Below, piece by piece: positions 809 to 62,025 of a stretch of DNA of 64,000 nucleotides (position 1 is its first letter; every line of letters starts with the position of its first letter). Position numbers and translations under genes: made by a program. Source of the DNA: a virus (taxonomy: Duplodnaviria; Caudoviricetes); the IMG/VR virus record IMGVR_UViG_3300029288_000065, positions 128,001 to 192,000 of that record. One strand, 5' to 3'. Below the pieces are notes generated by a model that was given only the letters and a program-made list of their open reading frames with translations, searched no databases and was not told the DNA's origin.

Positions 809-1593
809 AATCAATGATAAAACCTGGATTTCCGAAATTACGTCGGCAATTTGTTTCTCCTACTCTTTCGAAAATTCAAAAATCCGGTGCTATTGTTTTA
901 ACTGCATCTTTTATTGCTAATACGCCTACTCATGATCATAAAATTAAAGATGAATACAATAGAATTAGACAATATATATATTGTTTGCTTTCTTGGCCAA
1001 ATACTAATATACAAGACATAATATTTTGTGAAAACAATATAAAATTCCCATTTGATTTTAACGATTTGATAAGTATCTGCAATTCTAAGGGTACAAAACT
1101 TGAAATTCTTAGATTTGATAGTTCAAAACAAGATAAATATAAAGGATATGGTTTTCTGGAACATAATATTTTAAAATATGTTTTTGAAAATTCAAAATTT
1201 TTATTAAAACATAAAAATTTTTTTAAAGTGACAGGTCGTCTATTTATAGAAAATTTTAATGAAATAAATACAATGAATTTAACCAATAATAATGTATTTT
1301 CAAAATGCTATTTTGACAATCGTTTTTTGGATACAAGATTTTTCAAAATGTCATGTGATTTTTTTAGAGAAAATTTATATAATATACCTGAAGATCGTTT
1401 TGATTTTGCCAAAAATCATATAGAAAGTGTGTATACGCAACACATAAAAGACTTTGATTTTTTCAAAGAGAAACCAATAATTGTTGGTAGAGAAGCTTAT
1501 CATAATATTATTTATGATAAGGATTATTCTCAGGAACTGATCACATTTTCACAAAAATTTATCCCAGAGAGACCAATTAACCAAAAACGCTAA
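802..1593 (+). CDS. Glycan-biosynthesis-associated protein (GT-like)
   Basis: GGAG precedes ATG 802. Motifs LTAS, R..QY...L, IIFCEN, KGYG.LE and FFKVTGR are typical of a conserved polysaccharide-locus/phage family. Confidence 0.55.
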   Translation: MLKSMIKPGFPKLRRQFVSPTLSKIQKSGAIVLTASFIANTPTHDHKIKDEYNRIRQYIYCLLSWPNTNIQDIIFCENNIKFPFDFNDLISICNSKGTKLEILRFDSSKQDKYKGYGFLEHNILKYVFENSKFLLKHKNFFKVTGRLFIENFNEINTMNLTNNNVFSKCYFDNRFLDTRFFKMSCDFFRENLYNIPEDRFDFAKNHIESVYTQHIKDFDFFKEKPIIVGREAYHNIIYDKDYSQELITFSQKFIPERPINQKR

Positions 1594-2248
1594 GAACCTT
1601 CGCCAATCTATCACTTAAAGCAGGTCTCACGACATCACGATGTGATCTCTTAGGATGAAAATGCACCACTCTGGCTGGTAATTGCGCGGTCTTAAACCTT
1701 TCCTGAAAACCAGTCACACCAATATTATATGTATTATCCAAGAAAGTAACCCTATCATTCTCGGAAAGAACCTCAAAAAGCGCCCTTTCCTCTCTTGGAT
1801 AATTACATTCCATGATTCTGTTTGTAACTTTCTCAATCAAATCTTTTGCTGAATCCCTAAGGAAGATACTCCCACCAGCCAATCTCTTGGTTGGGTATTT
1901 ACAAAGTGCCATATCTTTAAATTCTGGTTCTTCAAAAAATACATTCTGCCAAGCATCCAAATCGTGTAACCAGATACTGTCATTTATTGGTAAAATTTTT
2001 AAAATCCCAAATAATTTGCTTCCAGTTGGACAAATTTTATTCAATTCATAGACTCTAGATGCTATTCCTTGATATTCATATGGGAAATTTGATATTATTA
2101 TTATATCATCTTTTTCCCATCCTAGTGATAAACTATTTTCTATCTGTAATTCTAGATATTTCTTCATTCGTGCTATAAATCGCATTGAATCTTGGACTTT
2201 GTATATGTCTTCTACTGGTTGGATATTGACGACCATGACGTTTTTCAT
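1577..2248 (-). CDS. GT-A (GT8-like) glycosyltransferase
   Basis: HDLDAW (DxD), GGSIF, EERAL, LDNTYN and VVHFHP occur in the GT-A order. Confidence 0.6.
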   Translation of the reverse strand: MKNVMVVNIQPVEDIYKVQDSMRFIARMKKYLELQIENSLSLGWEKDDIIIISNFPYEYQGIASRVYELNKICPTGSKLFGILKILPINDSIWLHDLDAWQNVFFEEPEFKDMALCKYPTKRLAGGSIFLRDSAKDLIEKVTNRIMECNYPREERALFEVLSENDRVTFLDNTYNIGVTGFQERFKTAQLPARVVHFHPKRSHRDVVRPALSDRLAKVLSVFG

Positions 2249-2895
2249 ATATCATACTTTAATTTCAACGTGTCTTCCCAAACTTTTTCTTCTGATTGTT
2301 CCGCATCTATGAATTGAATAGAATGTGGGCGTTCCCAGTTTCTCATTAGGTGGAGTGCGTTGTCCCAGAGTGTAGAAAGTGGGCGAGATATCTCTGTATA
2401 GGCATTACTTACTGCTTCGAAGTAGGTATCCCCTCGGGATTCTATCTTATCCAGGGTTGCTCTTGTTTGGATGCGTTTTTTGGCTATCTCCCATTTACAG
2501 AGATATATTATTAGTAGGTCAATTCGTGGTGTTTCAATCATCTTTTGAAGTTCAAGAAATCGTGAATCTAATTTTCCTGCTGCATATCCGTAGGCCAATC
2601 CTCCTATTAGATTGGATCTGTCACAAATTACTATTTTTCCTTCTTCTAGGGCTGGTTTGTGGATTTGGTTTGTGAAGCTAGTTAGGTCTGCCAGCATTAA
2701 TATTTGTTCTGTATATCTGTCTATTGTTACTTCTGGATCGTGTTTTACCAGGTGTCTTATTTTTTGTCCTAAGATGGTTGCTCCTGGATGTTTGGTATGG
2801 ATTGCTGTGTCACCCAGGTGGTTTTTGAGCCTGAGGCTCATGGTTGATTTGCCGCTTCCATCTATTCCTTCGAAGACTATGGTTTTCCCTGTCAT
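2245..2895 (-). CDS. tmk: Thymidylate kinase
   Basis: IVFEGIDGSGKST P-loop, VICDR, LAYG, DKIES. Confidence 0.93.
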   Translation of the reverse strand: MTGKTIVFEGIDGSGKSTMSLRLKNHLGDTAIHTKHPGATILGQKIRHLVKHDPEVTIDRYTEQILMLADLTSFTNQIHKPALEEGKIVICDRSNLIGGLAYGYAAGKLDSRFLELQKMIETPRIDLLIIYLCKWEIAKKRIQTRATLDKIESRGDTYFEAVSNAYTEISRPLSTLWDNALHLMRNWERPHSIQFIDAEQSEEKVWEDTLKLKYDI

Positions 2896-3104
2896 GTTTG
2901 TTTGTATCCTTTTTGTTTGTATCCTTTTATTTCACTACCGTCTTTCATATGGATTAGGACAAAATGTGGTATTCCTAGTGATGATGGGCAATATCCAGAA
3001 TTTTTTCTGGCCCAAGAGATTTCTTCGGGGTTTACCAGAACTCTTTGATATGATGCGTCTGGTCCTGGTACTTTATTGTCGATTGGGCCTATTTCAATTA
3101 GCAT
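2892..3104 (-). CDS. Hypothetical protein
   Basis: 4-nt overlap with the tmk start; C-terminal KGYKQ tandem duplication. Confidence 0.55.
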   Translation of the reverse strand: MLIEIGPIDNKVPGPDASYQRVLVNPEEISWARKNSGYCPSSLGIPHFVLIHMKDGSEIKGYKQKGYKQT

Positions 3105-3118
3105 AATTCTTAAATACT

Positions 3119-3152
3119 GCGCGGCCCCTGATAGCCAATCCAGGGGCCGCGC
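3119..3152 (-). terminator. GC-rich hairpin, probable terminator
   Basis: Perfect 12-bp inverted repeat gcgcggcccctg / caggggccgcgc just after the 3159 stop; U-tail is weak. Confidence 0.6.
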
Positions 3153-3158
3153 TGTTAA

Positions 3159-3989
3159 TTACGACAGCCAATCCTTCTTCTCTAATTCTTGGATGTCCAA
3201 AGTTTTGGCTTCGGGTGGTATGGTGATATTGAAGATGGTTTCATTGTATTGTTGGTCCATAAGTACTTCACTGAAGTTGAATGTAATTTTGGCATCCTCG
3301 GTTACTGAGAAGGATACTTGGTGTGGGATTAGTTGTCCGTTTATTGTTTTGTAGTTGTCGAAAGAAATAATTCCTGTTAGGTCGCCGTTTTCGTCGTATT
3401 TGTAGATGTTTGTTATGATGATTTTTCCATCTGTTGTTCGTCCGAACACTACTTTCTTTAGTACTTTTACTATGTCTCCAGTGGTATTGATGACTACCAT
3501 CGTATTCTTTTCTCGGATATATCTCCTTTGCGTTGCGTTGGCGTCCCACGCGTTTGGAAACATCAGAGAGTACCCACACAGCTCTGATGTTAGTAAAGAG
3601 AACCAGCTTTTTAATTTACAGACGTCTACTTTGCTTCCGGTGAATACTACGTCCTTTCTTGGAAGGAATATTGTTGCTTTTTCTCCTGTTACTGAATAGT
3701 CTATTACTTGGGCTATTTCTGCGTAATTTATTCTGATTCTGGTGCTTTGGTTGGTGGTGAATACTACTGCATTTAGGTTTGTGTCTTTCCCTTTACTGTT
3801 TATGACTACTGTTCCTTTTACTAGGAGGTTGTCTAGTCCGTAGCCGCGTGTTTCCATGTCACAGATTTGTTGGTGATCTGTGTGGCTCGTGACTGCTGTT
3901 GTGAGGGGTATGTTGTTCATGGCTAGGTCTTGGGACAGACATAGACATGGTGATGCCACTACCGCGAGTAGCAGTAATTTCGTATTCAT
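3159..3989 (-). CDS. Secreted LolA-like/DUF4292-like protein
   Basis: AGGAG RBS; signal peptide MNTKLLLLAVVASPC; C-terminal FDNYKTINGQLIP..V and FNITIPP motifs of LolA-fold proteins. Confidence 0.55.
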   Translation of the reverse strand: MNTKLLLLAVVASPCLCLSQDLAMNNIPLTTAVTSHTDHQQICDMETRGYGLDNLLVKGTVVINSKGKDTNLNAVVFTTNQSTRIRINYAEIAQVIDYSVTGEKATIFLPRKDVVFTGSKVDVCKLKSWFSLLTSELCGYSLMFPNAWDANATQRRYIREKNTMVVINTTGDIVKVLKKVVFGRTTDGKIIITNIYKYDENGDLTGIISFDNYKTINGQLIPHQVSFSVTEDAKITFNFSEVLMDQQYNETIFNITIPPEAKTLDIQELEKKDWLS

Positions 3990-4006
3990 CGTGTCTCCTG
4001 TTTGTC

Positions 4007-4720
4007 TCACTTCTTGGGTGGTGGGAATTTTTCGCCTAAGGTGGAATTCACCCTAAGCTCTTCGGTTGCTGATTTCTCCTTTACGGCTTTCTGTAACTCC
4101 TGGACTGTAGTTGTTAGCTGTCGAAATGCTTGATCTTGTCTCGTTGCATTTTCTTTGATGCTTGAGACAATGGTTTCGACATTCTTATTAGAGGACACAC
4201 TCGTGCTGAGTGATGTCAGTGCTGTTTTGATTTCTGTCAGGTCTACTGGTCCTCCTTCCTTTGGGATGGAATCGAGCTTCTCCCCCAGACTTACGATCTG
4301 TTCTTGGACTTTGGCGAATTTCTGGTTGACGGCATCAACCAGCTTGTTCATGTTCTGGCTTGTTCCGTCAAGTGAAGTCGCAATTGTCCCCAGTGCGTGT
4401 TCTGTTCTCTGTGTTGCCTCCTTACTTGGTTCAACGCGTAGAACGGTTGGTGTTTGCGGAGCTTGGGCTGGTGCTGGTGCCATCTTTTGTTGCATGTTTT
4501 GGAGTACGGTCTGACCTGTGATTGTCAGGTAGTGCCCCAAAAAGATTGCAAAGAGACAAATCAACATGAAAACAGCTGCCCACAGAAATGGTAAGCCACG
4601 TTGTTCTTGATGTGGTTGGAAGGCACCTGCGACCTTATTGGTGAAACTTTCTCTCAGACCTTCTTTCATTTCCTTTGCCATTACTGCACTACTCTTGGCA
4701 ACTTCATTTTGTTGTTCCAT
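4007..4720 (-). CDS. Single-pass membrane coiled-coil protein
   Basis: GGAG RBS before MEQQ; hydrophobic FLWAAVFMLICLFAIFLG followed by a heptad-rich region. Confidence 0.7.
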   Translation of the reverse strand: MEQQNEVAKSSAVMAKEMKEGLRESFTNKVAGAFQPHQEQRGLPFLWAAVFMLICLFAIFLGHYLTITGQTVLQNMQQKMAPAPAQAPQTPTVLRVEPSKEATQRTEHALGTIATSLDGTSQNMNKLVDAVNQKFAKVQEQIVSLGEKLDSIPKEGGPVDLTEIKTALTSLSTSVSSNKNVETIVSSIKENATRQDQAFRQLTTTVQELQKAVKEKSATEELRVNSTLGEKFPPPKK

Positions 4721-5549: not shown

Positions 5550-6353
5550 TTATCCCTCCTTTTTATAGTTCGCCTTTATGTTGGCATCCGCGTAATCCCA
5601 GAACTTGTTCTTGATGTAGTATCTCTGATTCGCGGCTGTCACCTTCTTGAGAATCTTTTGTAGGAGATCAGTCCATTTGATCTTCTTGTGAATTTCCGGA
5701 TTCCACCTTGGATCAACCACTCCGATCTTTAGCTTTCCGGTTTTCCCACAGAGCATATCAACCACGTCCAATGCTTCCTTTTCGTCCATGATTGGCTCGA
5801 TACTTACCCAGGTTTTTTGTCCATCTTTGTGGGCTTGCCAGATCGCGTCAACTCTGCTCTGGATGCTGCTTGCGTTTGGCTCCCAGATTTGTCTTTGTGT
5901 TTCACTTGCCCAGACTATTGTCGTTGCTAGTTCGGTGTCATATCGCCGGATTAGGTCGTAGTCGTTTGAGATTGCCATTCCTGGATTTTTGGTTAGGATC
6001 GTTACTTTCATGTTGTTTTCGCCGAGGATTTCCAGAACTCGCCTGGTCATTCTCCATTCTTGTTCTAGAGGTTGGTATGGGTCGCTGGTGAAGCTTAGGA
6101 GGACTCTTCGTTTGTCATTTTTCATTTTCTTGGCTTTGTTGGTTAGTTTTCGGAAGAAGATCTTTTTCTTTTCATCGAAGGTTGCATCTGTTGGTCCGAT
6201 TAGTCCGAGTGTTGAGTCTACTTTCTTTCCTCCGATCATTTCCAGGAATCCTGGTACGTAGCAATATTTGCAGTTGTGTCCGCATCCTTTGTAGTAGTTT
6301 AGTGCCAGTGGGGCGTATTCCAGGGCTGGTCCTTTTGGTGCGTAGATTGGCAT
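5550..6353 (-). CDS. Radical SAM protein, SplB-like/COG1533 family
   Basis: NYYKGCGHNCKYCY (CxxxCxxC), TSDPYQP, ILTK, SIEP; AAGGAG before ATG 6353. Confidence 0.85.
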   Translation of the reverse strand: MPIYAPKGPALEYAPLALNYYKGCGHNCKYCYVPGFLEMIGGKKVDSTLGLIGPTDATFDEKKKIFFRKLTNKAKKMKNDKRRVLLSFTSDPYQPLEQEWRMTRRVLEILGENNMKVTILTKNPGMAISNDYDLIRRYDTELATTIVWASETQRQIWEPNASSIQSRVDAIWQAHKDGQKTWVSIEPIMDEKEALDVVDMLCGKTGKLKIGVVDPRWNPEIHKKIKWTDLLQKILKKVTAANQRYYIKNKFWDYADANIKANYKKEG

Positions 6354-6396
6354 TTCGTTCTCCTTGTTGATAATATATCTCAGCGCGGCCATTCTT

Positions 6397-17852: not shown

Positions 17853-20800
17853 TCAGACCATGTTATTGATGAAATACTCGAACAGGAGTTTTCTATCTTC
17901 CATTGTCATATTAACACATGCCAGACAATGATTCTTTGTTGTATTGTAAAGTTTCGCCATCCGAACCTCATCTCCCTCCTCCAAATATCTAACAACCCTA
18001 TTCTTGATAGGAGCACTGACGACACATTCAACGATCAACTTGGCCATTTCTCTTAGAGTTGGCTCTACATCTTCAAGATATAGGTTGTATATGTTCTGTT
18101 TGACTGTTTCGTCCTCTTTCTCCCAGGCGTTCAATGCTTCTTGTTCAATTTTGGCATGGAGGTGTTCTACTTCTTTCCTCTTTTCCTCATTTTCTTCGAA
18201 AGACTTATTTGGGTCAGGTTCAAATTCAAATCTCTTGTTTAGACGTTCTACTACATCATCAATATCCAGGAGTTGCCATCCCTTACTGGCGTCTGCTTCT
18301 TGTTCTTGCTGCCATTTGGCTTCCTTTTCTTCCTCTTCTTCCTGTTCTTGTGAGAGAGGTGTGAAACCGTATAATTTTCCTCTTCTGTCCTTTTCTTGTA
18401 GGAACATTGGCATATGGATTCTTGCCCATTCTGCCATGGCAGCAGGATCTTCACCGAATTTATACCGGAGGGCATATTGCCAGAATCTGTCCAAGTCCCA
18501 GTTAAAGAATACTCTAAATGTTGCGCGAGTACTTTCAACACCGGCATAAGGTTCGTTTTCTTGACGGTAAGAATCTGCAACGTCTCTGATCAATCCTATT
18601 GATTCATCCTCAGTCTCAGTTGCGAACAGCTTTTTCTCAGGCTCACTTTTCAGATCTATCACTTTACCAAGCAACTGAGTATTCCCACCAAATACCTTCT
18701 TCTTCCATTCATCTCTTGACATATAAGGATCACCCCATGAAGAAACAATAGCTGGATCATAAAGTAATACCAACTTTTTGAAGATTCTCTGTGCTCTGGC
18801 TGGACTAATTTCAAGTTGCATAGCCTTCCCGATGAAATTAATCTCTTTCTTCTTAATCATCTGAGCACGTGCGGCCAAGAAATCATCTCCAATTGGACCA
18901 CCATAAACCTTAGACTTCTGGTCAATATATTCCTTGTAAACTTTGGTCATATATTCATCGAATTTATCTCTAATAAAAGAACCTTCCTCGCCAGCAATAG
19001 AATCAGGTAAGCCGAATTTAATCCTATTGGCTTCAGCTCTGTAAAAATCATTCTTCCACAGGTTCTTATCGGCCTTTTGGTAGGTTCTGAGAACAGAATC
19101 ATTTATATCAAAATCGACATTATGGAGACCGAACCTATCCCCAACATTTACCTTTATACCCCTTGGGCCTGTGTAGGATACAGTACCAGTCTCTGGATCA
19201 AAATCTGTAACTTCAACTGTACCATTTGGAAGATCAACAGAAACATTCTCTCGGAAATTGACGTTTTGGTCAATCAGATCTTCTGAAGTGAATTTGTTGT
19301 GCGCTGGGACACTAGAAACATAACCAGTAATTACAGGATTCTTAAACTGTGAAACCAACTGTTCCTCAATAGCATTTCTAAGGCCTTCATGAGTGGTTAA
19401 TGTTTCTTGGTAAGTAGGATCGTTCTTGTCACTTGGTAATTCTATTCCCTTTATTGTCTTTCTTGGGATAGTAATATACATCTCATATTTCATATCTTTC
19501 TCACTCTCAATTTCTTTTTTGAAATAACGGGTGAACATTTCTACTTTTTTCTCAATGGGAACTTTTGCCATATTCTCTTGGAACTCTTCAAAATCAGTAA
19601 TACCATACTTGACAAAATCGTCCTTGTGCTGTTCCCAAGTCATCCTCTCATATTTCTCGATGTTGGACGTATTCCATCTAAATTTGGCACCTGCTACCCT
19701 ATCAACCGAGATGCCTGTTCCATTGGAAACCATAATATATGCTCTGTACATCCTGCCATTGACGTTTACTGCTTGTGGTTCTGGTAGATGTATTACCGTG
19801 AAACCTACGCCCTTCTTCATCAGTTCTGGTGGTGGTGGCTGATTCAGGACTACTTCACCTGTCTCAGGATTAAACAAGAAATCACCGTTGGTATCTCTCT
19901 TGACGTGGTAGGTTCCAGACCCAAGTTTGATAATGGTTGATTCATCTTTTAGGATCTTGCTAATTGTTGGAGTACTGGCACTTCTACCTCTTGCTTTGGA
20001 GAATGTAGCAGAGGTAATACTTGGGAGTTCAGGATTGGCGTCGTCAATTTTTCCATGGATCAGGTTTAGGTCGTCTATATCATATCCCTTCTTTAAATTC
20101 TTAAAGATAGTTGAGGTTACGTCATTGGCTAGTTGGACATAAGTTCTATCAGTAACATTTAATTCTTTGACATCACGGCTTACTTTCTCAAGTTCTCCTT
20201 GGATTAATTTGAACAGGCGTGGTCCATTGAATACTGAATTACCAGAGTGAATCATACCAGGAGGCATTTTCTGGTTTTTCTGAATATAACCATAGAGTTC
20301 TTTTTCGGAGAAGTCTTCCGCTGGTGTTTCAATAATCTGATCTACCATTTGGGATATTTCATCTCGTGCTGTGAAAAATTTCCCAGCAGCTTGACGCTTC
20401 GTTTTAGCTAATTTATACATATCCATTATGTCTTTTGGATTCTGTTTGGCGTCAAAGTCTTGCATGAACGCCATTAAATCTTTCTCCATCTGTGACATAA
20501 CCACCTTGAATTGTTGGATATAATCGTCACTTGTGCTTAGATCAAGAAATTCTCGTTTTGGAATATAGATCCAAAGTTCGTAATGTGCTGGAATTTTATT
20601 GCGTGGTGTAGAAGCTCGTTCAATTCTCTTGAATGGTTCCAGACCCTGTTCCTTCGAAGTTGGTGAAATCATATCTTCAGCATAGTATTGGTATATTTTC
20701 TCCAGAGTGTCCCGTAACATCTCATATTCAGCAATTTGTTCCTCGTTGAAACCTGAATTCTCAATGGAATAAAGTGATCTTCTTGAGCCATCAGATTCTT

Positions 20801-35031: not shown

Positions 35032-35430
35032 CTATTCCTTGAAGAGAGGTTTTCGTCCTTCTCTGATGGCTGCTGCTTCAAACATGTCTACATCATCCAT
35101 AATCGAATCCAACAAAACTGCTTCATCGGCGGACACACTCTTTTTCAGATTTTGGAGTAACAACACCTTGTCATATTGTCGGTGCATAGTGTTTTTAATT
35201 TTCTTTGCACGTTCCTCTTCCGAACGCTTACGCTCATCCTTGTAAGTACTATCGTCAAGAACAATCTTTCCACCGCAGTGAGAACAATACTCACCAACCG
35301 CAATGGGTAGAGGGGCAAATGACATTCCAACCTCTTCTGGGGCATCGTACCGGATCTTTTTGCCACATGCCGTCTCCCAATCGTCCCCGTAAGGATCAGA
35401 ACTCTTTTTAGTGTAGACGCATTTCTTCAT
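35032..35430 (-). CDS. Zinc-ribbon hypothetical protein
   Basis: WETACG...YCSHCGGKI. Confidence 0.65.
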   Translation of the reverse strand: MKKCVYTKKSSDPYGDDWETACGKKIRYDAPEEVGMSFAPLPIAVGEYCSHCGGKIVLDDSTYKDERKRSEEERAKKIKNTMHRQYDKVLLLQNLKKSVSADEAVLLDSIMDDVDMFEAAAIREGRKPLFKE

Positions 35431-38534: not shown

Positions 38535-38822
38535 CTAGAAATATTTCTCAGCCTCTGCTCGTCGTACTGCACAAGAGATACCCCTTGAGGTAGCCTTGAA
38601 CTGAGAGAATGACCATCCTTCTTTACTTGGACAACATCGGGCGCTGACGGATATCTTACCATCGGAAACGGAAATAGTGACGCTTCCACGGTCAGTAGAA
38701 TACCCAATGCTTCGGATCAAACCATTCACTATATAGGGACTCCATCCAGAGGAGGTGTTGAGCTTTCTTAGAACCTGTCTTAGAAGATTGTCTTCCTGTC
38801 CTAGCTTTTTTAGGTTCCTCAT
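38535..38822 (-). CDS. Hypothetical protein
   Basis: ATGA overlap with the radical SAM gene. Confidence 0.5.
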   Translation of the reverse strand: MRNLKKLGQEDNLLRQVLRKLNTSSGWSPYIVNGLIRSIGYSTDRGSVTISVSDGKISVSARCCPSKEGWSFSQFKATSRGISCAVRRAEAEKYF

Positions 38823-39688: not shown

Positions 39689-39736
39689 GCTGCCTCCTTG
39701 TTGGAGTAGTATCATTTTTTGTGAGAAGAGTGAAGA

Positions 39737-39885
39737 GGGGTGGCCAATGGGTGCCTCTCTACCAGTCAGCAATAGCTAAGGTAGCAGACATCCCCCAATC
39801 CTGTGGATCAGAGTGGTCCACAACATTTCCAGGGTCGCTGGATATGCTATACGCGAGACTGGAAGGAAGTCCACTGGTCACCCCC
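39737..39885. ncRNA. Candidate rod-like structured RNA (~150 nt)
   Basis: Nested complementary arms: ggggtggccaatgg/ccactggtcacccc, ccagtc/gactgg, atagc/gctat, tgtgga/tccaca. GC-rich island in an intergenic gap. Confidence 0.5.
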
Positions 39886-45053: not shown

Positions 45054-47018
45054 TCAGCAGCGGATTGCGCGAAGAATCTTCATCTTCGCATTGTGGAGAA
45101 CCTGCCTAACATGCTTTAGATTAACGTCTCTTGCGGCTGCAACAGTCAAGACCCCAGGAATGGTCTTTTCCTTGGTACCGGTATCATCCTTCTCCTTAAT
45201 AGGAGACTTGAATACCAGAGGATACTGGTGAGCAATTTCCTCTACTTCCTTGATTTTCTGATGATCAAGGCCATAAGCCTGAGCGAACACCAGATTCTCT
45301 TCCAGAGTCAAACCAGCAAACTTCCTGGCCGTCTGGACCAGAGGGTAAAACTTCGGATCTTCCTCCAACTCCTCGAAAGAGAGATCCTGGAGCTTCTTGT
45401 CGCCAGCTTCCTGGAACTGGGCAATCCTCTGACGAGAAACGGTCCTGTTCTTGTTGGTATCATTGGTCAACTTGCCGAAGTTATTGGCTATCTCAGAACC
45501 AGCCAATTTCTCCTTCCCGTTGATCCCATAGATGTGCTCCAACACCACACGCTGCTTGTCAGAAAGGACTACTTGGGAAGTAAGCCTGCTTACCAGTTCT
45601 ACCATCTCATTCTGGCTAGCAATCTCATCCGGCTGAGCGAACGGAATACCAGTCTGGAATCCACCATCAGTCCTCTTGGCGAGCAAGTCAGCCTTCTGAG
45701 AATAGCTGACCGTACCAGTCAGGACTCCACCCTCTTCAGGATCTTCTGCCCCATCCAGACTCACAGGATTCCCATGGAAATCAGGATTAGTGGCGAAAAG
45801 CTGAACCAGGTCAGCCACGCATTGGACACGGTCAGAACTACTGGCATTTAGTGATACCTTCCTGGACCCAGGAGTATTGTTGAACTTCAAGTTTAGATAA
45901 TCAACCAGGTAATCCAGAACATCGCCATCCAGGTTTCTGAGGTTAAACTTCCCAGAAACTACCCAAATGTAGACGTTCTTCTGACCAAGTTTCTGGATCA
46001 GTCGGTATTGCCAGTTGGGAGGAGTACCGATTCCCAGACCATCAGTCCCGTTGATAATTTCATAGGACTTGTCAGACTTTGACAGTTCAAGATATGAATT
46101 GAAACCCTGGTCCTTAGCAATTTCGTCCAGTTCTCTGGACCCGATAGGCCCCAGGAAGTTCTCTTCCCAATAAATTATCTCGTCGAGATATTCATATACT
46201 TTGTCCTTTATTTCTTGGATCTTTGTCTCGGATTTTACATCTTCGAAGGATTCATATTTTAGCGTCTGGGCATGCCTGTCCATTTCATGTTGCTTGACTT
46301 TTCCAGTCAGATAGATGGTGATTGCTTGTAGAACTTCGGTCACGGACGGGCGTTTTTCAGGAGTTTTTACGATTCCTGATTGGGCTGACGGGCGGCGTGT
46401 ACTGGTTCTGATTCTGCTGTAGCCGTGCTTGGCGAATGGTGCCATTCCTGCATCGGTCTTGATTGCGAACATCAGGCCTATTGCGCCGTTCTGTTTGCAT
46501 TCGTCCACGTCGCAGCGCTTGGAGTAGTAGCGTTTGGCGTTTTCTCCAATATAATTGCTCATTGCCTCTACGAGTTCGTCTTGTGTCCAGTTGTAGAGGA
46601 GTGGATGTTTGATCTTGTTGAGGGAGTCGAAGGTCTTGGGGAGCTTGCAGAATTCTTCGTATTCTTCCTTGGTCGGGAGGCCTTGGTAGCGGGTAATCTC
46701 GACTCCGTTCACTTTGACTTTTAGGATTTGTGTAATCTTCTTTAGAGTCTTGACTGAGCGTTGGACGTTGAAGAAGATTTGGATTTTTTCTTCCGGGACG
46801 CCGATGGAGAGCAGGTGGTCGCGGATGACTTTTTCGAGTTCTTGGTTTTTGCTGTTGTCTTCTTTCTTTTGTTTCTTGATGCTTTTCTTGTCATAGACGA
46901 TTTCGGCGCGGATGAATTGTTCTGCTTCTTTGTTTCCGATATTAGCCGTCAGGTTCTGACGGATTTCCTCTAGCAGAAGGGCATGATCAGAGACGATGAG
47001 GGGTGGTTCTTTGGACAT
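45054..47018 (-). CDS. Phage sigma70-family factor (654 aa) with insertion and duplicated region 4
   Basis: AKRY...VDECKQNGAIGLMFAI...FAKHGYSRIR (region 2); VSLDG (3.2); LSDKQRVVLEHIYG...EIA...VSRQRIAQ (4); AAGGAG before MSKE. Confidence 0.8.
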   Translation of the reverse strand: MSKEPPLIVSDHALLLEEIRQNLTANIGNKEAEQFIRAEIVYDKKSIKKQKKEDNSKNQELEKVIRDHLLSIGVPEEKIQIFFNVQRSVKTLKKITQILKVKVNGVEITRYQGLPTKEEYEEFCKLPKTFDSLNKIKHPLLYNWTQDELVEAMSNYIGENAKRYYSKRCDVDECKQNGAIGLMFAIKTDAGMAPFAKHGYSRIRTSTRRPSAQSGIVKTPEKRPSVTEVLQAITIYLTGKVKQHEMDRHAQTLKYESFEDVKSETKIQEIKDKVYEYLDEIIYWEENFLGPIGSRELDEIAKDQGFNSYLELSKSDKSYEIINGTDGLGIGTPPNWQYRLIQKLGQKNVYIWVVSGKFNLRNLDGDVLDYLVDYLNLKFNNTPGSRKVSLNASSSDRVQCVADLVQLFATNPDFHGNPVSLDGAEDPEEGGVLTGTVSYSQKADLLAKRTDGGFQTGIPFAQPDEIASQNEMVELVSRLTSQVVLSDKQRVVLEHIYGINGKEKLAGSEIANNFGKLTNDTNKNRTVSRQRIAQFQEAGDKKLQDLSFEELEEDPKFYPLVQTARKFAGLTLEENLVFAQAYGLDHQKIKEVEEIAHQYPLVFKSPIKEKDDTGTKEKTIPGVLTVAAARDVNLKHVRQVLHNAKMKILRAIRC

Positions 47019-47062
47019 GTTCGGCTCCTTTCGTCGCACGAACGGCACGAGATGACACGAGA

Positions 47063-47091
47063 ATTTTACCACATTTGGTGGTTTTTGTCAA
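47063..47091 (-). promoter_or_regulatory. Canonical sigma70 promoter TTGACA-17-TAAAAT driving the sigma gene
   Basis: Near-consensus, with an extended TG. Confidence 0.75.
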
Positions 47092-50078: not shown

Positions 50079-50087
50079 TTTATTCTC

Positions 50088-52004
50088 CTAACCAAGAAGC
50101 TTCCGGAAATCCTCCAAAGACACAACAGTGACACCCAAAGAAGCAGCCTTCTGCATCTTACTACTACCACTACCAACATCCTTAGCAACCAAATAATCCA
50201 GACCCTTAGCAACACCAGACTTCTCCTTGGCACCAGCAGCCTGGAATTTGGTAATCTCATCACCCTTCAACCGAACACCAGTAAAACAGACCGACTTCCC
50301 ACTCAGAGGATGACTGGTATTGACCTGAACCTTCTCAGGGAGGGTGATTGTAACATATTTAAGCAATTTCTCGATCTGTGGCTTGGCCTTCTGAATACCA
50401 GCCACAATACCAGGAGCCTTACTCCCTTCCTCACTGAAACCAGCCATATTCCTCAATTGATCAACCGTCACTGCCATAAACTTCTCCAGAGTATCAATCC
50501 CTTGACCCATCATAATCTCAGCTTGACGGCGACCCATGAACTGAATACCCAAGCTACCAATGAAATCGTTTAACTCACAAGACCTGGATTTGTTGATCTC
50601 CACCATAATCTGCTTACTTGCAGTACCAACAATCCCCTGACCCCTCTTGACCTTGTACAGATCTTCTTCCTTGATTGTGTACAGGTCAGCAGGAGTTAAG
50701 ATACTATGGTGGTTGAACAATTCAGCAAGAAGTTCATCGCCAACAAACTTAATCTCCCTTTTGGTAACCCAGTTTTTGAGCCGCTGGAAGGCTTTTCCAT
50801 CGCAGGCGTCATTCTTACAGGTCCAGTGGACTCCTTCCTTAACTAGGTCAGAGTTGCAAACGATACACTTGGTGGGAGGAACAATTGGTTTATTGGTAAT
50901 GTCGATCACCCTATTAACGTGTGGGATGACATCACCAGCACGTTCAACTTCGATTTGGCATCCTTCCGTGAGACCGAGTTCTTTGATATAGTCATAATTG
51001 TTCAGGAGTACATGGGAAATTGTAACACCGCCGACACGGACTGGCTTCAGGACGCCGGTAGGAATCATTGCCCCTGTGTGTCCCTGGGAAACCATGATCC
51101 CTTCAAGGATGGTGATTGCTTTCTGTGATGCAAATTTGACGCATCTTTGCCCCTTTGGCCGCATATCAGAACTCGCTCCGAGTGCAGCCTGGACGAAGAG
51201 ATAATTCGCTCTGACAATTACTCCGTCAATTTCAAAATCAACGAATTCTCGTTCATTCTCAAGATCTTTATAGGCTTTCCAGACTTCTGCTCCGTTGTTG
51301 AATTCTTTATGGTCAACTGTTTGGAATCCCAGTCCTTTGATGAACTCGATTCGTTCCGATTCTGTATCCCATTCTTTCCCGTTGCAGACATCGTAACAGA
51401 TGATATTGAAGTGCTTCTGGAGATCTCCACCTTTCCTGTCTCGGAGGAGTCCCGAGACGGTATTTCGTGGGTTTTGGTATCCCAGTGGTTCGAAGATTTC
51501 TTTAAATTTCTTGACTGCCAGGATGCCTTCGCCACGGATAGAGCCTGTGAAGTTGCTCTTGAGTTTCTTGGGGACGCCAGGGATTTTGAGGACGTTTTCT
51601 GTGATATCCTCTCCCTTGTACCCGTCTCCTCGTGTAACGGCGTTAATTAGTTTGCCGTTTTCGTAGTTGAGAGCTACGGAGTTACCGTCCAGTTTCCATT
51701 GCATGACCAGGATAGGTTTGTTTTCTCCTGTTGCGGAGACAATTCCGTCTACCCATTGGTCGAATTCTTCTCGGTCTTTGAGTTTCTCTTGGGAGCCCAT
51801 TGGGATTTTGTGTTCTACAACTTGTCCGAGTGGGGGCGCTCCGATTTCTTTTAGGACTGTATTTTCGGGGTCCAGGATTCGGAGTTCGTCTACCAGGATA
51901 TCGAAGTCTGAGTCTTGCATGATTGCTGTACCAGTATTATAGTAGGCATCAGATGCTTCTTTGATCTGTTTGGATAGTTGGGCGATGCGTTCTTTCTTTT
52001 CCAT
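50088..52004 (-). CDS. ligA: NAD-dependent DNA ligase
   Basis: AYYN...DSDFD, KLDG, TRGDG..GEDIT, NPRN, DGVI, RAGDVIP, zinc finger, HhH, and BRCT (VCFTG...DYLV). Confidence 0.95.
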   Translation of the reverse strand: MEKKERIAQLSKQIKEASDAYYNTGTAIMQDSDFDILVDELRILDPENTVLKEIGAPPLGQVVEHKIPMGSQEKLKDREEFDQWVDGIVSATGENKPILVMQWKLDGNSVALNYENGKLINAVTRGDGYKGEDITENVLKIPGVPKKLKSNFTGSIRGEGILAVKKFKEIFEPLGYQNPRNTVSGLLRDRKGGDLQKHFNIICYDVCNGKEWDTESERIEFIKGLGFQTVDHKEFNNGAEVWKAYKDLENEREFVDFEIDGVIVRANYLFVQAALGASSDMRPKGQRCVKFASQKAITILEGIMVSQGHTGAMIPTGVLKPVRVGGVTISHVLLNNYDYIKELGLTEGCQIEVERAGDVIPHVNRVIDITNKPIVPPTKCIVCNSDLVKEGVHWTCKNDACDGKAFQRLKNWVTKREIKFVGDELLAELFNHHSILTPADLYTIKEEDLYKVKRGQGIVGTASKQIMVEINKSRSCELNDFIGSLGIQFMGRRQAEIMMGQGIDTLEKFMAVTVDQLRNMAGFSEEGSKAPGIVAGIQKAKPQIEKLLKYVTITLPEKVQVNTSHPLSGKSVCFTGVRLKGDEITKFQAAGAKEKSGVAKGLDYLVAKDVGSGSSKMQKAASLGVTVVSLEDFRKLLG

Positions 52005-56273: not shown

Positions 56274-56484
56274 CAGAAACCTTCTCCCACCTACCCAATC
56301 TTCCTTCGTCTGGTTTGAACTGCTCTACCGTGACTCCACCACCGATACGGCACAACCATACCCGAATGGTTCCAGTATCAACCTTACAACTACAACATTG
56401 TCCTTGAAATAATGTTGGGAGATCCTTCAGTGCTTTCGCATCCCATTTAGCCATTTGGCGTCCCTTTCTCAGCATTTGACGCAA
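56242..56484 (-). CDS. Hypothetical protein
   Basis: Operon position; probable start at MAKW. Confidence 0.5.
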   Translation of the reverse strand: MRQMLRKGRQMAKWDAKALKDLPTLFQGQCCSCKVDTGTIRVWLCRIGGGVTVEQFKPDEGRLGRWEKVSGGCTKADSDD

Positions 56485-57601
56485 TCATAAAGTGCTCAAA
56501 CGTCGGGAATTCTTCACAGCTACCTTCAAGATCATATTCCTGAGAAACCAGATCACCGATATACCCCTGAAAGCGACGACTCGCCTCAGGATTCAGAATA
56601 TGGGTTGCCAACTCGGTGGTGAAATTCTGGATCGTATAAACCGTTGCCTTAGTCGGCAATGTCCGCATCCTCTTCTTGCTGATAGCGTCCAACTGAACCA
56701 CGCCATAAATTTCTTTAATATCACCACTTCGCTTGTAAAGATCAGCCAGGACTGCATTCCTCATATCGTCCTTTTCTGGCTTGGTATTCCCACAGATTTC
56801 TTTCATCATATCAGATTTGAAGTCATTCAGATTCAGCTTCCAGATGAATTGGGCCAGTCTAACAACCTCATTCACGGAGGCCCATGACTTCTGAGCCGAC
56901 TCAATTCTATTCCTAAGAGCAACAAAACCATCCTCATTACTATAACTCTCCAAAATCCGTTGGAGAGTCCCACCAATCTGGGTATCCCCAATGTTGATCC
57001 CGCTGTGGAATGCCTTACTGTAGGCAACCAGACCATTCTTACAGGCTTGTCGGAGAAGAGAGAGATATACTGACGGTTTTCCATAGCCGTCGATTGGGGC
57101 TTCCAGAGTTAGGCGCGGCTTGTGATCATCTTCACCGATCTTGAAAAGGACATCACTCCGTGGAGGGTGACGACTTACGATTACCCCACTTCGATACTCT
57201 ACGCCACGGGTATCCAAATTATTGAGCGTTGTGATTAGAGTCGTGCAGTCCAGGATATTCTTGTCAGGACCAGATACTCCAAGTAGGGTTGGCTTGAACG
57301 TCTTGGAGTCCTCTTGTTCTGATGGGGTTGTTTGGATTGCCACTCGAATATTGTCGTTCGGTACAGCGGCAGTGATCCTTGCGAATACTTCTGCATGGGT
57401 GAAGTATCGGAAGATTGATGGGCCGAATCCGAATCGGCTGCAGAGACTATCCCAGAATCTCTGGGATGGTTCGCAATATTGGCTGTCAATCTGGACGGAA
57501 GTTACTTCTTGTCTGCCTTTCTCGTCCTTTTCGACATTGACTTTGAAATCCTGGATGGACTTGATCTTGTAGTCGATCGCAGGAATCGTGACTTGTGCCA
57601 T
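56447..57601 (-). CDS. DUF932-like protein
   Basis: IDGYG...YLSLLRQACKNGLV, TVY...NF.TE.ATH. Confidence 0.65.
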   Translation of the reverse strand: MAQVTIPAIDYKIKSIQDFKVNVEKDEKGRQEVTSVQIDSQYCEPSQRFWDSLCSRFGFGPSIFRYFTHAEVFARITAAVPNDNIRVAIQTTPSEQEDSKTFKPTLLGVSGPDKNILDCTTLITTLNNLDTRGVEYRSGVIVSRHPPRSDVLFKIGEDDHKPRLTLEAPIDGYGKPSVYLSLLRQACKNGLVAYSKAFHSGINIGDTQIGGTLQRILESYSNEDGFVALRNRIESAQKSWASVNEVVRLAQFIWKLNLNDFKSDMMKEICGNTKPEKDDMRNAVLADLYKRSGDIKEIYGVVQLDAISKKRMRTLPTKATVYTIQNFTTELATHILNPEASRRFQGYIGDLVSQEYDLEGSCEEFPTFEHFMIASNAEKGTPNG

Positions 57602-59700: not shown

Positions 59701-59704
59701 TTTA

Positions 59705-60237: not shown

Positions 60238-60259
60238 GTGATTCTCCTTGGCACGTCAT

Positions 60260-60997
60260 TTAGAGGTCAAGGACCCGATGCCCCAACGCGGCGAACTTGG
60301 CAACGACCTGCTGGCTAGCGCCAGCTTCTGCGACAGTAGAATAGACCTCCTGCATGACCGGAGCGACGCTCTGCTCGTTCTCGTCTTCGTCGTCTCCGAG
60401 GTTAAGTTTGCGTGCCCCGATAGCAGCAAACTTAACCGACATTACTTCCTTGACCTTACTGTACAACCGCTTGAGGTAGGCACGTACTGCTTCGACAAAC
60501 TTATGCCCTTCTCCGGAGGCTACGTCTGCTCTACCAAATTTGATCTTTCGTCCTTCTTCTTGTATCTCACCCTCGAGAATCAAGGAATCGGTCTTGTTCA
60601 GCAAGAGCCGAGTAGTTTCCTTGGTCCAACTATTAAGGATTTCTACGTAGACGTACCTGGTGGGATCATAGTTACCAATAAACGTGAGATTATTCCCCAT
60701 CCTGGACACCCATTGAATCCGACCGATCTTGTTCTGGGTACCCAATTCCTGGGCAGTCTTGACTTCCTGCTGAAGCTGTTCAGAGGTGACCAGCTTGTAG
60801 CCCTTTGCTTCCTTTTCAGCTACTTTCTTGTCAATGAATCGGTCGCGGGCGCTTTGGCTTCCGAAGTCTTTGATTTGTTCTTGGCCGGTTTCTCCGACTC
60901 GTCCCCATTGGATTCGGACTTGGTCGCTGCCGATTTCTTCATAACTCCATGACTTGTTGTGATGGTCCTCCTGGCAGACGTAATTGTGTTTTGCCAT
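60260..60997 (-). CDS. WGR-domain protein
   Basis: HNKSWSYE...IQWGRVGETGQ.Q.K.F...EKEAKGY. Confidence 0.85.
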   Translation of the reverse strand: MAKHNYVCQEDHHNKSWSYEEIGSDQVRIQWGRVGETGQEQIKDFGSQSARDRFIDKKVAEKEAKGYKLVTSEQLQQEVKTAQELGTQNKIGRIQWVSRMGNNLTFIGNYDPTRYVYVEILNSWTKETTRLLLNKTDSLILEGEIQEEGRKIKFGRADVASGEGHKFVEAVRAYLKRLYSKVKEVMSVKFAAIGARKLNLGDDEDENEQSVAPVMQEVYSTVAEAGASQQVVAKFAALGHRVLDL

Positions 60998-61352
60998 CTT
61001 CCTGTCTCCTTTTTTCGTGTGGACAAATACCATAAATATTCTTGGCACAGTTACAATTCCAACATAATGGTTGGAGATCTTTTGGAAAATTATTCTTAAT
61101 TACCCACCTATAGAAAGCATCTCCTCCAGCTTTTGGTCTTCCTAATTGCTTCCTGTGTTCGGCACCATTGTTGTTTATATGGTCCAGGGTTAAGAAGTCA
61201 ATTCCCTCTCCACAACAAACACATTTTCTTCCATAATGATTAAAAACTATTTCTCTCAATTTAAAAAGATGGAGGAAAGAACATCCAGAAGAGTTTTGTC
61301 TTATTTCTCCAAGACCTTGTTTTCGTCCAACTTCTTCCCATCCTTTACCCAA
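60939..61352 (-). mobile_element. Second HNH endonuclease, probably N-terminally truncated
   Basis: YGRKCVCCGE..FLTLDHINNNG..HR...LCWNCN...CPH; no convincing start or RBS. Confidence 0.7.
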
Positions 61353-61552
61353 TAAACCGAATTCTGTCCAGGCAATGATTGCTGACTATACCCCTGCTCC
61401 ATGGCCTTCTCTCTAATCATCCTCTCCCCATGATTATAAGAGATAACTATTGCGGTAATGCATACGCCAATAATAAGAATACCAAACACGACCCAAAATT
61501 CTTGTTGTTTGACGAGAGAGTTCCAAAATCCCTTTTCTTCTTCTTGTGCCAT
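61301..61552 (-). CDS. Small membrane protein
   Basis: TM FWVVFGILIIGVCITAIVISY. Confidence 0.65.
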   Translation of the reverse strand: MAQEEEKGFWNSLVKQQEFWVVFGILIIGVCITAIVISYNHGERMIREKAMEQGYSQQSLPGQNSVYWVKDGKKLDENKVLEK

Positions 61553-62025
61553 TACTTCCTCACTTTCTTGGCTTGTTCCATCAGAATCTCTGAAACTTCA
61601 GCGATGTTTCCTACGTTTATTACCTTCCCTTTCATGTCCCAGAAAGTCTTCGTCTCAGGGTCAAATAAAAAAGGCATCCTGGTAATATTGCACTTCCCTT
61701 TCAGAACAATCAACAATAGTCCAGCAATACCAAGAGAAGCATCTGGTGATGCCAATTCCTCCGTTACAATCCTTAGATTGGTTAATCCTACTATATTGTC
61801 GTTGCCGAAGTTCCTTCCCTTCAGTTTTAATGCCGTTCGTTTCTCTAAGAACTTTAGGAAATTGCTTTTGAGACTCACCTCATAAAATGGTGCATCAATA
61901 TCACTTTTGTTTAAGGTAATAACAGAATCGGCTCCGTATCCTAGTTTCTTGAGACTTATACTAACCTTTCCATTCCCCAAGTCCTCATAACAAGACATAT
62001 ATTCTTCAAGGAGCTTCGGTCTCAT
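61552..62025 (-). CDS. Hypothetical protein
   Basis: RBS and operon spacing. Confidence 0.6.
   Translation of the reverse strand: MRPKLLEEYMSCYEDLGNGKVSISLKKLGYGADSVITLNKSDIDAPFYEVSLKSNFLKFLEKRTALKLKGRNFGNDNIVGLTNLRIVTEELASPDASLGIAGLLLIVLKGKCNITRMPFLFDPETKTFWDMKGKVINVGNIAEVSEILMEQAKKVRK

Follow-up and report, generated by a model that had tools for sequence, protein, structure and literature searches.

Our analysis shows that the DNA of this phage lineage is under a lasting base-composition pressure that changes strand along each gene. The window, i.e. the 64,000-nucleotide stretch of DNA that was analysed, comprises bases 128001–192000 of one 233,959-bp contig from an uncultured T4-like phage (234 kb). 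A skew field of synonymous keto and amino bases extended over positions 1560–61600 of the window, with the G+T fraction at third codon positions (K3), read on the plus strand, going up within genes and down at gene borders. Genome-wide, K3 across the deciles of genes of at least 600 nt was 0.447, 0.461, 0.470, 0.532, 0.538, 0.576, 0.589, 0.603, 0.630 and 0.610. Codon position 1 shifted slightly over the same deciles (0.456 to about 0.52) and position 2 had no trend. The test of slopes along genes was restricted to genes of at least 200 codons. For the whole genome, 110 of 129 such genes had a positive K3 slope (53 significant) and 19 a negative one (0 significant); in the window, the slopes of 31 of 38 genes were positive (16 significant) and those of 7 were negative (0 significant). 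These results bear out the kilobase-scale amino/keto sawtooth at synonymous sites that had been proposed in a preliminary description of the window. Amino-acid composition, which that description had named as a possible refuting explanation, fails to account for the pattern: the share of G/T-ending codons was higher in the last than in the first third of genes for 18 of 18 degenerate amino acids, and fourfold sites alone were sufficient, their G+T content rising from 0.37–0.42 at codons 0–100 to 0.60–0.66 by codons 400–600. We conclude that the change from A/C to G/T within genes is real, strong and upheld through evolution.

The amplitude of the sawtooth was large. Plus-strand skew, scanned as (G+T-A-C)/N in 1-kb windows, reached extremes of -0.18 and +0.31. 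K3 took values anywhere between 0.16 and 0.91 in single 100-codon bins, with a standard deviation among bins of 0.144–0.146 compared to 0.050 under binomial sampling, and plus-strand K3 in 300-nt bins of the window extended from 0.11 to 0.91. The change in plus-strand K3 was +0.032 per 240 nt inside genes versus -0.057 over borders, and ramp and step models fitted about equally well (cost 6250 versus 6261). Distance to a gene's own start and stop accounted for only 17% of the excess variance among bins and strand for 26%, the remainder being gene- or region-specific. A plus-strand G+T excess irrespective of gene orientation was also present in the genome.

Comparison of change points with gene boundaries, as suggested in the preliminary description, revealed a clear association: 62–78% of sharp drops had a gene border no more than 100 nt away, versus 29% by chance. 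Sharp rises were located inside genes. The mean plus-strand drop was 0.06–0.09 at each junction type (++, --, +- and -+), none of the junction drops was below -0.25, and overlapping gene junctions showed a small drop too (0.076 ± 0.011). The skew pattern was its own reverse complement and was independent of gene strand; as had been noted before, the G/T-rich strand was the one with its 3' end toward the reset, which we found to be true of every one of the four junction types. Deviations from baseline at the two gene ends were 0.105 and 0.09 for plus-strand genes and 0.155 and 0.135 for minus-strand genes, and the flanks of a border were positively correlated (r = 0.29 to 0.69). K3 was predicted better by how far a site lies from the start and stop of its gene (dLL 420) than by distance within operon-like gene runs (142–266), which we defined for the present analysis by intergenic gap size.

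Sharp resets were identified at 10991 (J = 0.46; convergent gene border 6 nt away; plus-strand K3 0.65 to 0.20), 23193 (J = 0.48; 20 nt from the boundary between ORFs of 2140 and 1786 aa), 17003 (J = 0.42; gene border; plus-strand K3 0.55 to 0.15), 39746 (J = 0.38; start of a radical-SAM gene), 35436 (J = 0.34; PE-PolX gene end, 6 nt from a border) and 49840 (J = 0.34; immediately downstream of ligA). At the twelve reset coordinates given in the preliminary description the plus strand dropped without exception, by 0.12–0.39 at the named base and by at least 0.25 in eight cases. As resets are very common, the best drop found up to 400 nt to either side of random positions had itself a median of 0.24, and only four of the twelve exceeded the random 90th percentile. 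A sigma-70-like site is present on the minus strand (39951–39924), 180 nt upstream of the reset at 39746. A general link of resets to promoters or to an enriched motif, both of which had been raised as possibilities, was not observed; a strong sigma-70-like site lay within 200 nt of only 2 of 9 strong resets between 33.5 and 53.4 kb, and no k-mer was enriched at the 50 strongest resets. The drop was also no larger at terminator-like hairpins (0.083 versus 0.098).

The clearest ramp within one gene was that of ligA (50088–52004, minus strand), which encodes an NAD-dependent DNA ligase according to Pfam and PHROG matches. K3 in its successive 60-codon bins was 0.25, 0.22, 0.23, 0.30, 0.45, 0.43, 0.48, 0.62, 0.82, 0.75 and 0.95, and the two contrasting codon strings previously cited from this gene were found in frame at 51876–51890 and 50187–50219. 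The pattern had also been claimed for the PE-PolX gene and the 2140-aa ORF, and was found in both. PE-PolX (35430–36731, minus strand; Pfam LigD_N and PolX domains) is a LigD-type 3'-phosphoesterase (PE) fused to a PolX polymerase. K3 was 0.38 in its first half and 0.79 in its second (r = 0.40, p = 7e-18), the PE portion being A/C-rich and the PolX portion G/T-rich; the plus-strand bins were 0.11, 0.24, 0.62 and 0.66. In the 2140-aa ORF (23259–29681, minus strand; r = 0.23, p = 1e-26), whose family is unassigned and for which a Pfam search gave no match, K3 in 100-codon bins went from 0.21 to 0.75, remaining low for about 700 codons, reaching a plateau of 0.4–0.5 and climbing over the last 300 codons. 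The 1786-aa ORF (17853–23213, minus strand), also without an assigned family, had a weaker rise (bins 0.29 to 0.55) and intragenic oscillations, including a drop near 18528 (J = 0.34) with the nearest gene border 675 nt away. K3 switched in a step-like manner near 46.1 kb in a 672-aa ORF (45054–47072, minus strand; first-half K3 0.31, second-half K3 0.65, p = 4e-18) and ramped from 0.40 to 0.68 in a 384-aa ORF (56447–57601, minus strand; p = 3.5e-9). One ramp spanned three successive minus-strand genes (1577–4010); plus-strand K3 was 0.35 at 1501 and had reached 0.87 by 3601, dipping only slightly at the two places where one gene gives way to the next. K3 of the major capsid gene was flat (0.35–0.54).

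We conclude that the pressure targets nucleotides rather than codon choice. All four bases took part at fourfold sites along genes (A 0.42 to 0.25, C 0.20 to 0.13, T 0.26 to 0.46 and G 0.12 to 0.18), and at twofold sites T/(C+T) rose from 0.60 to 0.73 and G/(A+G) from 0.30 to 0.54. The synonymous first position of Leu codons behaved similarly, with TTR/(TTR+CTN) increasing from 0.36 to 0.51 (p = 2e-5), and the shift was identical in all neighbouring-base contexts (+0.18 to +0.22). Over 581 bins, positions 1 and 2 tracked position 3 with slopes of 0.18 (p = 4e-20) and 0.08 (p = 1e-5), in A/C-rich and G/T-rich blocks alike. Non-coding flanks correlated with the gene end next to them (r = 0.46 and 0.36), with an amplitude far below that of third positions (0.54 and 0.49 versus 0.67 and 0.385). 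Stop-codon choice was independent of local bias, TAA making up 0.42–0.49 in every class. Predicted mRNA folding per 90 nt was not weaker in native sequences (-16.26 kcal/mol) than after shuffling of synonymous codons along the gene (-15.68 kcal/mol). The shifts at positions 1 and 2 and in the flanks, together with the unweakened folding, argue against simple codon-level or mRNA-structure selection. With its flat capsid gene and native folding of this strength, the pattern does not look like translational selection.

The pattern was common to five sampled relatives and was absent from T4, RM378, XacN1, LR756511 (a 595-kb huge phage) and the relative L006; it is therefore lineage-specific. The ligA ramp was also found in the orthologues of L001, L002, L007 and L008 and, in weaker form, of L006. 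In the comparison with L001, the nearest relative, third-position changes between amino and keto classes were at 50–98% of saturation, and despite near-saturated synonymous sites the ligA profiles of the two phages coincided. Orthologues in L002, L004, L007 and L008 (39–64% protein identity) kept the low-to-high order next to different neighbours; K3 went from low to high in the 672-aa ORF orthologues of L002 and L004, and from 0.24 to 0.72 in the 384-aa ORF orthologue of L002. Independent assemblies of other samples carried the pattern as well. From these data we conclude that the pattern is evolutionarily maintained. Resets lie at borders and the profile moves with orthologues into new neighbourhoods, which suggests that genes, and not independent sites in the DNA, anchor it.

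Our best reading, which we hold tentatively and at somewhat less than even probability, is a gene-anchored, strand-switching mutation pressure. Early in a gene the template strand is G+T-rich, such that the coding strand reads A/C-rich; late in the gene the coding strand itself is G+T-rich, with a reset at the gene border. On our reading, the strand that suffers more damage or miscopying, by changes of the C to T and A to G type, would differ between gene start and gene end. Because the skew is anchored on genes, coupling to gene expression, i.e. to transcription units and their borders, is suggested. Mutation bias is probably a better description than codon selection, and weak selection on base composition is equally compatible with the present data; the near saturation of synonymous sites precludes a rate test that would separate the two. 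We count as points against a strand-switching mutation pressure the hairpin-independent drops, the 2 of 9 promoter-linked resets and the drops at overlapping junctions, as well as the bias-free stop codons, the small flank amplitude and the 17% of excess variance.

That no special process is at work, and that amino-acid composition, a gene-calling or assembly artefact or a mosaic of imported segments produced the pattern, is extremely improbable. The gene- or region-specific share of the excess variance exceeds one half, as this explanation would allow, but all degenerate amino acids shift alike, fourfold sites alone show the pattern, independent assemblies agree, and a random mosaic would have yielded some significantly negative genes. 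The many fixed replication segments of the preliminary description, read as lagging- or displaced-strand synthesis primed at fixed sites, would generate a sawtooth in single-stranded time, hence a kilobase-scale G+T sawtooth, and mitochondria provide precedents for replication-linked G+T gradients. By geometric reasoning, however, exposure would be longest right after the previous priming site and zero at the next. A gradual G+T fall and an upward jump are then expected for either fork direction, opposite in polarity to the observed gradual rise and sharp fall, and we regard this explanation as very unlikely, save for the case that A+C is what single-stranded DNA gains in this phage. By the standard reading of replication skew, the sharp jumps look like termini, not origins.

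The preliminary description also invoked resection at fixed breaks. Gene borders would be recurrent double-strand breaks or stalled forks, and 5'-to-3' resection would expose the 3'-ending strand to deamination, rendering it G+T-rich on both sides; in the stalled-fork variant, single-stranded DNA behind and ahead of the fork would expose the 3'-ending strand on either side. Recombination-dependent replication of the T4 type would provide many single-stranded 3' tails. Geometrically, this is the only DNA-level model with a fitting polarity at both sides of a reset. It also suits the mirror symmetry and irrelevance of gene orientation, the similar deviations at both gene ends, the importance of both start and stop distances (with the mid-gene plateau of the 2140-aa ORF), and the orientation-blind plus-strand excess, which shows that some DNA-level asymmetry exists in the genome. 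However, strong resets have no mark of a break site in k-mers or hairpins, and the positive correlation of border flanks is contrary to the negative one expected from unequal break frequencies. Sites would also be needed at borders of all orientations, persisting in relatives with other neighbours, and T4, despite its replication from resected ends and its many homing endonucleases, lacks the pattern. We consider this model unlikely. Selection on transcripts, favouring mRNAs with A/C-rich 5' and G/U-rich 3' ends, corresponds to the transcript-level alternative of the preliminary description and is likewise unlikely. Initiation regions that stay open, a scarcity of U-dependent RNase E sites close to the 5' end, the loading of Rho onto C-rich, G-poor RNA upon translation failure, and long-range 5'–3' pairing are candidate causes. 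Resets at gene borders, overlapping junctions included, a gene-bound profile conserved in orthologues amid synonymous turnover, the smaller amplitude in non-coding flanks and the unaffected stop codons are all in its favour, and E. coli genes are known to have a weak positive gradient in their codon and base usage (Hooper and Berg 2000, as cited by PMC2777431). Arguing against it, the gradient here is about ten times that of E. coli, no weakening of local folding is seen, the gene with the highest expression, that of the major capsid protein, lacks a gradient, amino-acid-determining positions are altered in both directions, one ramp covers several genes (1577–4010), and drops also occur inside ORFs.

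Several known skews share features with the one described here. Human N-domains have a replication-associated sawtooth of combined G-C and T-A skew, which is read as a record of the strand that is more often single-stranded. In N-domains the skew jumps up abruptly at the origin and otherwise declines slowly, whereas in this phage the abrupt step goes down and lies at gene borders, with units of 1–6 kb. Transcription induces a non-template G+T excess in enterobacteria and in phage T7 with T7 RNA polymerase, a gene-linked C>T and A>G asymmetry at silent sites as in this phage. That excess has one sign over the whole transcript and rises with expression, whereas here the sign flips inside single genes, and the capsid gene shows no trend. 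A plain transcription model with damage to the exposed non-template strand does not suffice; it predicts a G+T-rich coding strand throughout and leaves 5' K3 values of 0.1–0.25 unexplained, so that a second, opposite process would be needed, which also counts against our best reading. Hooper and Berg are said to have found that G at third positions increases along E. coli genes. Third-position usage varying with start-codon distance is common to E. coli (Hooper and Berg 2000; Qin et al. 2004; both as cited by PMC2777431) and this phage. The E. coli gradient of about 0.05 per kb, ascribed there to translational selection, compares with 0.1–0.6 per kb here, where the highly expressed capsid gene is without a gradient and the bias extends to codon positions 1 and 2.

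GRINS, described in 2021 (PMC8256042), likewise have intense correlated GC and TA skews that make sequence G+T-rich or C+A-rich, with both signs on one strand inside genes and within 1 kb, the strongest effect at third positions, and shifts of Gly/Val/Cys/Trp versus Pro/Thr/His/Gln. By definition they are repeats exceeding 500 bp in length and 80% in identity, and they are tied to gene conversion (PMC8256042); unlike GRINS, the window contained no repeats of at least 60 nt. GRINS also differ in having no reported polarity to gene ends and in not being genome-wide (PMC8256042). A transcription-coupled strand switch, if it operates in this phage, would resemble the proposal for the opposite 5' and 3' skews of fungal genes, for which mutational and adaptive causes have both been weighed by the authors. 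As here, the coding strand of fungal genes favours C towards the 5' end and G towards the 3' end and is intermediate in the middle, and the skew is seen at fourfold sites, alters amino-acid usage and extends into flanks. This is a virus of prokaryotes, without the phases of RNA polymerase II. AT skew is uniform in fungal genes, whereas here the A/T swap is larger and coupled to the G/C swap, and the amplitude is far above that in fungi, with bins of 0.1 to 0.95.

K3, the proportion of G+T at third codon positions, was followed along the genes of the window and of the single 233,959-bp contig (40% G+C) of which the window covers bases 128001–192000. Averaged by gene decile, K3 was 0.447 in decile one and reached 0.63 in decile nine; the second codon position was flat along genes and the first moved slightly, from 0.456 to 0.52. 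Fourfold degenerate sites went from 0.37–0.42 to 0.60–0.66 over about 500 codons. Slopes of genes with at least 200 codons were upward in 110 of 129 cases genome-wide (53 significantly upward, none significantly downward) and in 31 of 38 cases within the window (16 significantly upward, none significantly downward). The standard deviation (SD) of K3 among 100-codon bins was 0.144, compared to 0.050 from binomial sampling. Along ligA K3 rose from 0.25 to 0.95, and the two codon strings quoted from this gene in the preliminary description were both found in frame. Silent sites swing from 10% to 95% G+T within one gene, in the same direction relative to the gene ends. The sawtooth skew at synonymous sites proposed in that description was thus confirmed by the decile values, the fourfold sites and the slope counts. 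The same description had named amino-acid composition as a possible source of the skew. Composition is not the cause, because all 18 degenerate amino acids had a larger share of G/T-ending codons in the last third of genes than in the first; the fourfold sites alone likewise rule it out. Long ORFs started low, passed through a plateau and rose late. Position in the gene accounted for 17% of the excess K3 variance and strand for 26%, the remainder being gene- or region-specific.

A gene profile running from A/C-rich (5′) to G/T-rich (3′) is its own reverse complement. Therefore, plus-strand G+T always increases rightwards before it falls, whatever the strand of the gene, and it follows that the mean plus-strand drop was 0.06–0.09 at all four types of gene junction (++, −−, convergent and divergent). 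A rise exceeding 0.25 was found at none of the 292 junctions. Sharp drops (resets) lay no more than 100 nt from a gene border in 78% of cases in one test and in 62% by segmentation, compared to 29% of random sites; sharp rises lay inside genes, at a median of 331 nt from a border. Segmentation yielded 45 downward jumps, which fell at gene borders, and 18 upward jumps. Plus-strand K3 gained 0.032 per 240 nt inside genes and lost 0.057 across borders. The distances to a gene's own start and stop both mattered, and jointly they fitted better than distances within operon-like runs delimited by intergenic gap size, so that gap-defined operon-level units were rejected. Ramps may span several short genes (e.g. 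1577–4010), a few drops occur inside long ORFs, and ramp and step models fitted equally well and were not told apart. All 12 resets listed by eye in the preliminary description were drops, eight of them amounting to 0.25 or more at the position given, but the list was just moderately better than random positions because resets are so frequent.

Several sequence elements were considered as markers of the resets. The 8-mer CAAAAATA is present no more than 100 nt upstream of 25 genes genome-wide (2.8 expected), in the window for example near minus-strand gene starts, and may be the counterpart of the T4 late promoter TATAAATA. Junctions with and without this motif had comparable drops (0.108 and 0.095). 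Terminator-like hairpins had no effect on drops, and sigma-70-like sites (61 found versus 44.6 ± 7.1 expected) seldom coincided with resets. Comparing the resets with enriched motifs, as had been recommended, gave a null result: no k-mer remained significantly over-represented around the 50 strongest resets once multiple testing was corrected for.

The shift acts on individual nucleotides. At fourfold sites along genes A fell from 0.42 to 0.25 and C from 0.20 to 0.13, and T rose from 0.26 to 0.46 and G from 0.12 to 0.18. AT and GC skew at third positions were correlated with r = −0.62, i.e. TA and GC skew are positively correlated; in 1-kb windows AT skew reached −0.50 and GC skew ±0.33. Twofold codons ending in pyrimidines and those ending in purines both shifted, as did the synonymous first position of Leu codons. 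Across bins, the G+T fractions at positions 1 and 2 tracked K3 (slopes 0.18 and 0.08) in both A/C-rich and G/T-rich blocks. Skew in non-coding flanks was correlated with that of the gene end next to them (r = 0.46 and 0.36) at much reduced amplitude, and pooled flanks were about 0.50. The shift was equal in every neighbouring-base context, and so gave no sign of a deaminase with a specific target motif. In the nearest available relative (contig L001), ligA has 83% DNA identity and 93% protein identity to that of this phage. Third-position changes between the amino and keto classes have reached 50–98% of the saturation value, and the two ligA K3 profiles nevertheless coincide; the force must therefore be ongoing and position-specific. 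Such a force, local and very strong, is not predicted by standard replication or transcription models of strand asymmetry. It is strong enough to alter which amino acids are used, and codon-usage, host-prediction and dN/dS analyses will be distorted by it in such phages.

Plus-strand genes predominate in the first half of the genome, minus-strand genes in the other half. Irrespective of gene direction, silent sites of the plus strand are rich in G+T throughout the genome, window included: K3 was 0.60 for plus-strand genes and 0.47 for minus-strand genes (0.53 if read on the plus strand), and about 0.38 for those minus-strand genes that are interspersed in the first half. This excess looks like a one-directional asymmetry at the DNA level, distinct from the sawtooth. 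Two minus-strand radical-SAM genes (5550–6392 and 38819–39772) have a coding-strand K3 of about 0.2–0.3, among the lowest in the genome, and the orthologue of the latter in the related contig L002 is likewise low (0.31). The plus-strand gene for the gp23-like major capsid protein, which lies outside the window (50087–51649 of the whole contig), is flat and rather A/C-ending (K3 0.35–0.54), and its neighbours differ. This suggests that translational selection overrides the local bias at the capsid gene.

The window encodes an NAD-dependent ligase, a fusion of a LigD-type phosphoesterase (PE) and PolX, a helicase and many proteins without a known family. The major capsid protein encoded in the same genome is of the T4 gp23 type, with identities of no more than 40% (best to an uncultured 595-kb phage) and of about 31% to RM378 and XacN1; judged by such comparisons, no cultured phage is close. 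Relatives were obtained by protein search, as a search of viral contigs with the ligA pattern gave none. The skew pattern was present in contigs L002, L007, L004 and L008 (ligase identities of 64%, 59%, 50% and 45%), with bin SDs of 0.12–0.18; L004 has a strongly G+T-rich background and L008 is 55% G+C. It was weak or absent in L006 (46% ligase identity, 58% G+C), the 595-kb huge phage LR756511, XacN1, RM378 and T4, in which bin SDs were 0.05–0.08 and quintiles were flat. Orthologues in L002 and L004 kept the low-to-high order despite different neighbours. Relatives with and without the pattern provide a natural contrast that could pinpoint the repair, replication or transcription step responsible.

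In replication skew, the plus strand jumps sharply upward at origins, A+C-rich sequence giving way to G+T-rich sequence, with a gradual return between the jumps; the phage differs, since its downward jumps outnumber the upward ones and its within-gene slopes are positive. Transcription-associated asymmetry renders the coding strand G+T-rich along the entire transcript, to a degree that increases with expression, whereas the phage has A/C-rich 5′ ends and a flat capsid gene. Translational gradients of codon bias affect codon choice alone and peak in genes with high expression, but in the phage the flanks and the first two codon positions are shifted as well and the capsid gene is flat. A gradient along E. 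coli genes, ascribed to translational selection (PMC2777431), is about ten times weaker than the phage's. Our literature search found no published account of such a pattern in phages.

The nearest published parallels are the gene-end skews of fungi (McLean and Tirosh 2011, PMC3315797) and GRINS (Nivina et al. 2021, PMC8256042). In fungal genes the coding strand has a C bias at its 5′ end and a G bias at its 3′ end, fourfold sites included; the skews reach the untranslated flanks and their amplitude is small. The phage has the same C-to-G polarity and the same effect on fourfold sites and amino acids, but AT skew is uniform along fungal genes, whereas in the phage A falls and T rises. GRINS exceed 500 bp and have more than 80% DNA identity to a nearby region, a repeat or gene-conversion partner. 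Their GC and TA skews are intense and mutually correlated (mean absolute value above 0.15) and strongest at third codon positions, with visibly shifted amino-acid usage. The phage resembles them in its intense, correlated skews of G+T versus C+A character, in an effect that peaks at third positions and shifts amino-acid usage, and in abrupt changes inside genes. However, GRINS are defined by repeats, and no direct or inverted repeats of at least 60 nt were found within the 64-kb window; moreover, no polarity relative to gene ends, such as the phage pattern has, is reported for GRINS. The contrast among the phage's relatives could illuminate the unexplained skews of both systems.

We tentatively favour a pressure that is gene-anchored, strand-switching and exerted on nucleotides; its origin would most likely be mutational, with a link to gene expression or to gene borders, and we hold this reading to be possible rather than probable. 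A mutational cause would make the profile a free map of strand exposure during infection; which strand would be exposed, and by what process, we infer from the pattern. Break or stall sites at gene borders are an unlikely alternative. Breaks with 5′–3′ resection, or forks stalled at borders, would give the right polarity, and mirror symmetry would come with them. The preliminary description had proposed resection at fixed breaks, from which marked cut sites and oppositely deviating flanks are expected; instead, the strongest resets carry no marking k-mer, the hairpins are without effect and the two flanks of a border correlate positively. T4 replicates from resected ends, yet it does not have the pattern. 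It is rather improbable that in this giant T4-like clade gene borders are recurrent sites of DNA opening or breakage and that the skew is a fossil map of recombination-dependent replication. Borders would then be opened by breaks and 5′–3′ resection, or by forks halted at bound transcription complexes, and the 3′-ending strand on either side would be single-stranded for much of each infection. Silent-site skew would record, gene by gene, where recombination-dependent replication starts or stalls.

Fixed priming sites, of the Okazaki type or as in the single-strand sawtooth of displaced, mitochondrial-type strands, correspond to the many fixed replication segments also proposed earlier. On grounds of replication geometry, exposure of a lagging-strand template should be longest just past the previous priming site and zero at the next, whichever way the fork moves. 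G+T should then be highest after a priming site and fall thereafter, but the observed polarity is the reverse. Plain transcriptional damage to the non-template strand cannot yield the strongly A/C-rich 5′ parts (0.37–0.42 at fourfold sites and 0.1–0.25 in single bins), and no rise is seen in the capsid gene, which surely is transcribed more than any other. We also consider it doubtful that selection on mRNA composition generates the skew, even though the indifference of stop-codon choice to local bias and the attenuation in the flanks agree with it. Selection for weak local mRNA structure found no support, as the predicted folding of native genes was slightly stronger than in controls with synonymous codons shuffled along the gene. 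Selection on decoding, in which A/C-ending codons pair by Watson–Crick rules and G/U-ending codons by wobble, is weakened by the first position of Leu codons, positions 1 and 2, the flanks and the flat capsid gene. An error-prone PE-PolX acting as a lineage-specific mutator is unsupported by the distribution of homologues: there are only four close ones, each on a small contig, none of the matches listed was traced to the contigs carrying L004, L008, L006 or L002, and no homologue was found in LR756511.

Some further features were observed. Contigs L002 (JGI metagenome) and L003 (Logan assembly, SRR32234027) are 100% identical across 13,764 bases, and in both (L002:9008–9838; L003:1359–2255) the relative's ligA is interrupted by an opposite-strand LAGLIDADG homing endonuclease gene, with the Ia domain of the ligase as a separate small ORF upstream of it. 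In the window, a near-consensus sigma-70-like promoter on the minus strand (47091–47063; TTGACA, 17-nt spacer, TAAAAT, upstream TG) overlaps the longest-ORF start (47072) of a 672-aa gene, the true start codon of which is probably further downstream. The PE-PolX gene (35430–36731, minus strand) encodes 433 aa as its longest ORF, including the LigD-type phosphoesterase domain, and its close homologues of 371–376 aa contain both domains. The public gene call (P0121) consists of 320 aa with the PolX part only and is located on a 252,755-bp contig; the phage genome may also be about 19 kb longer than the 233,959-bp contig.
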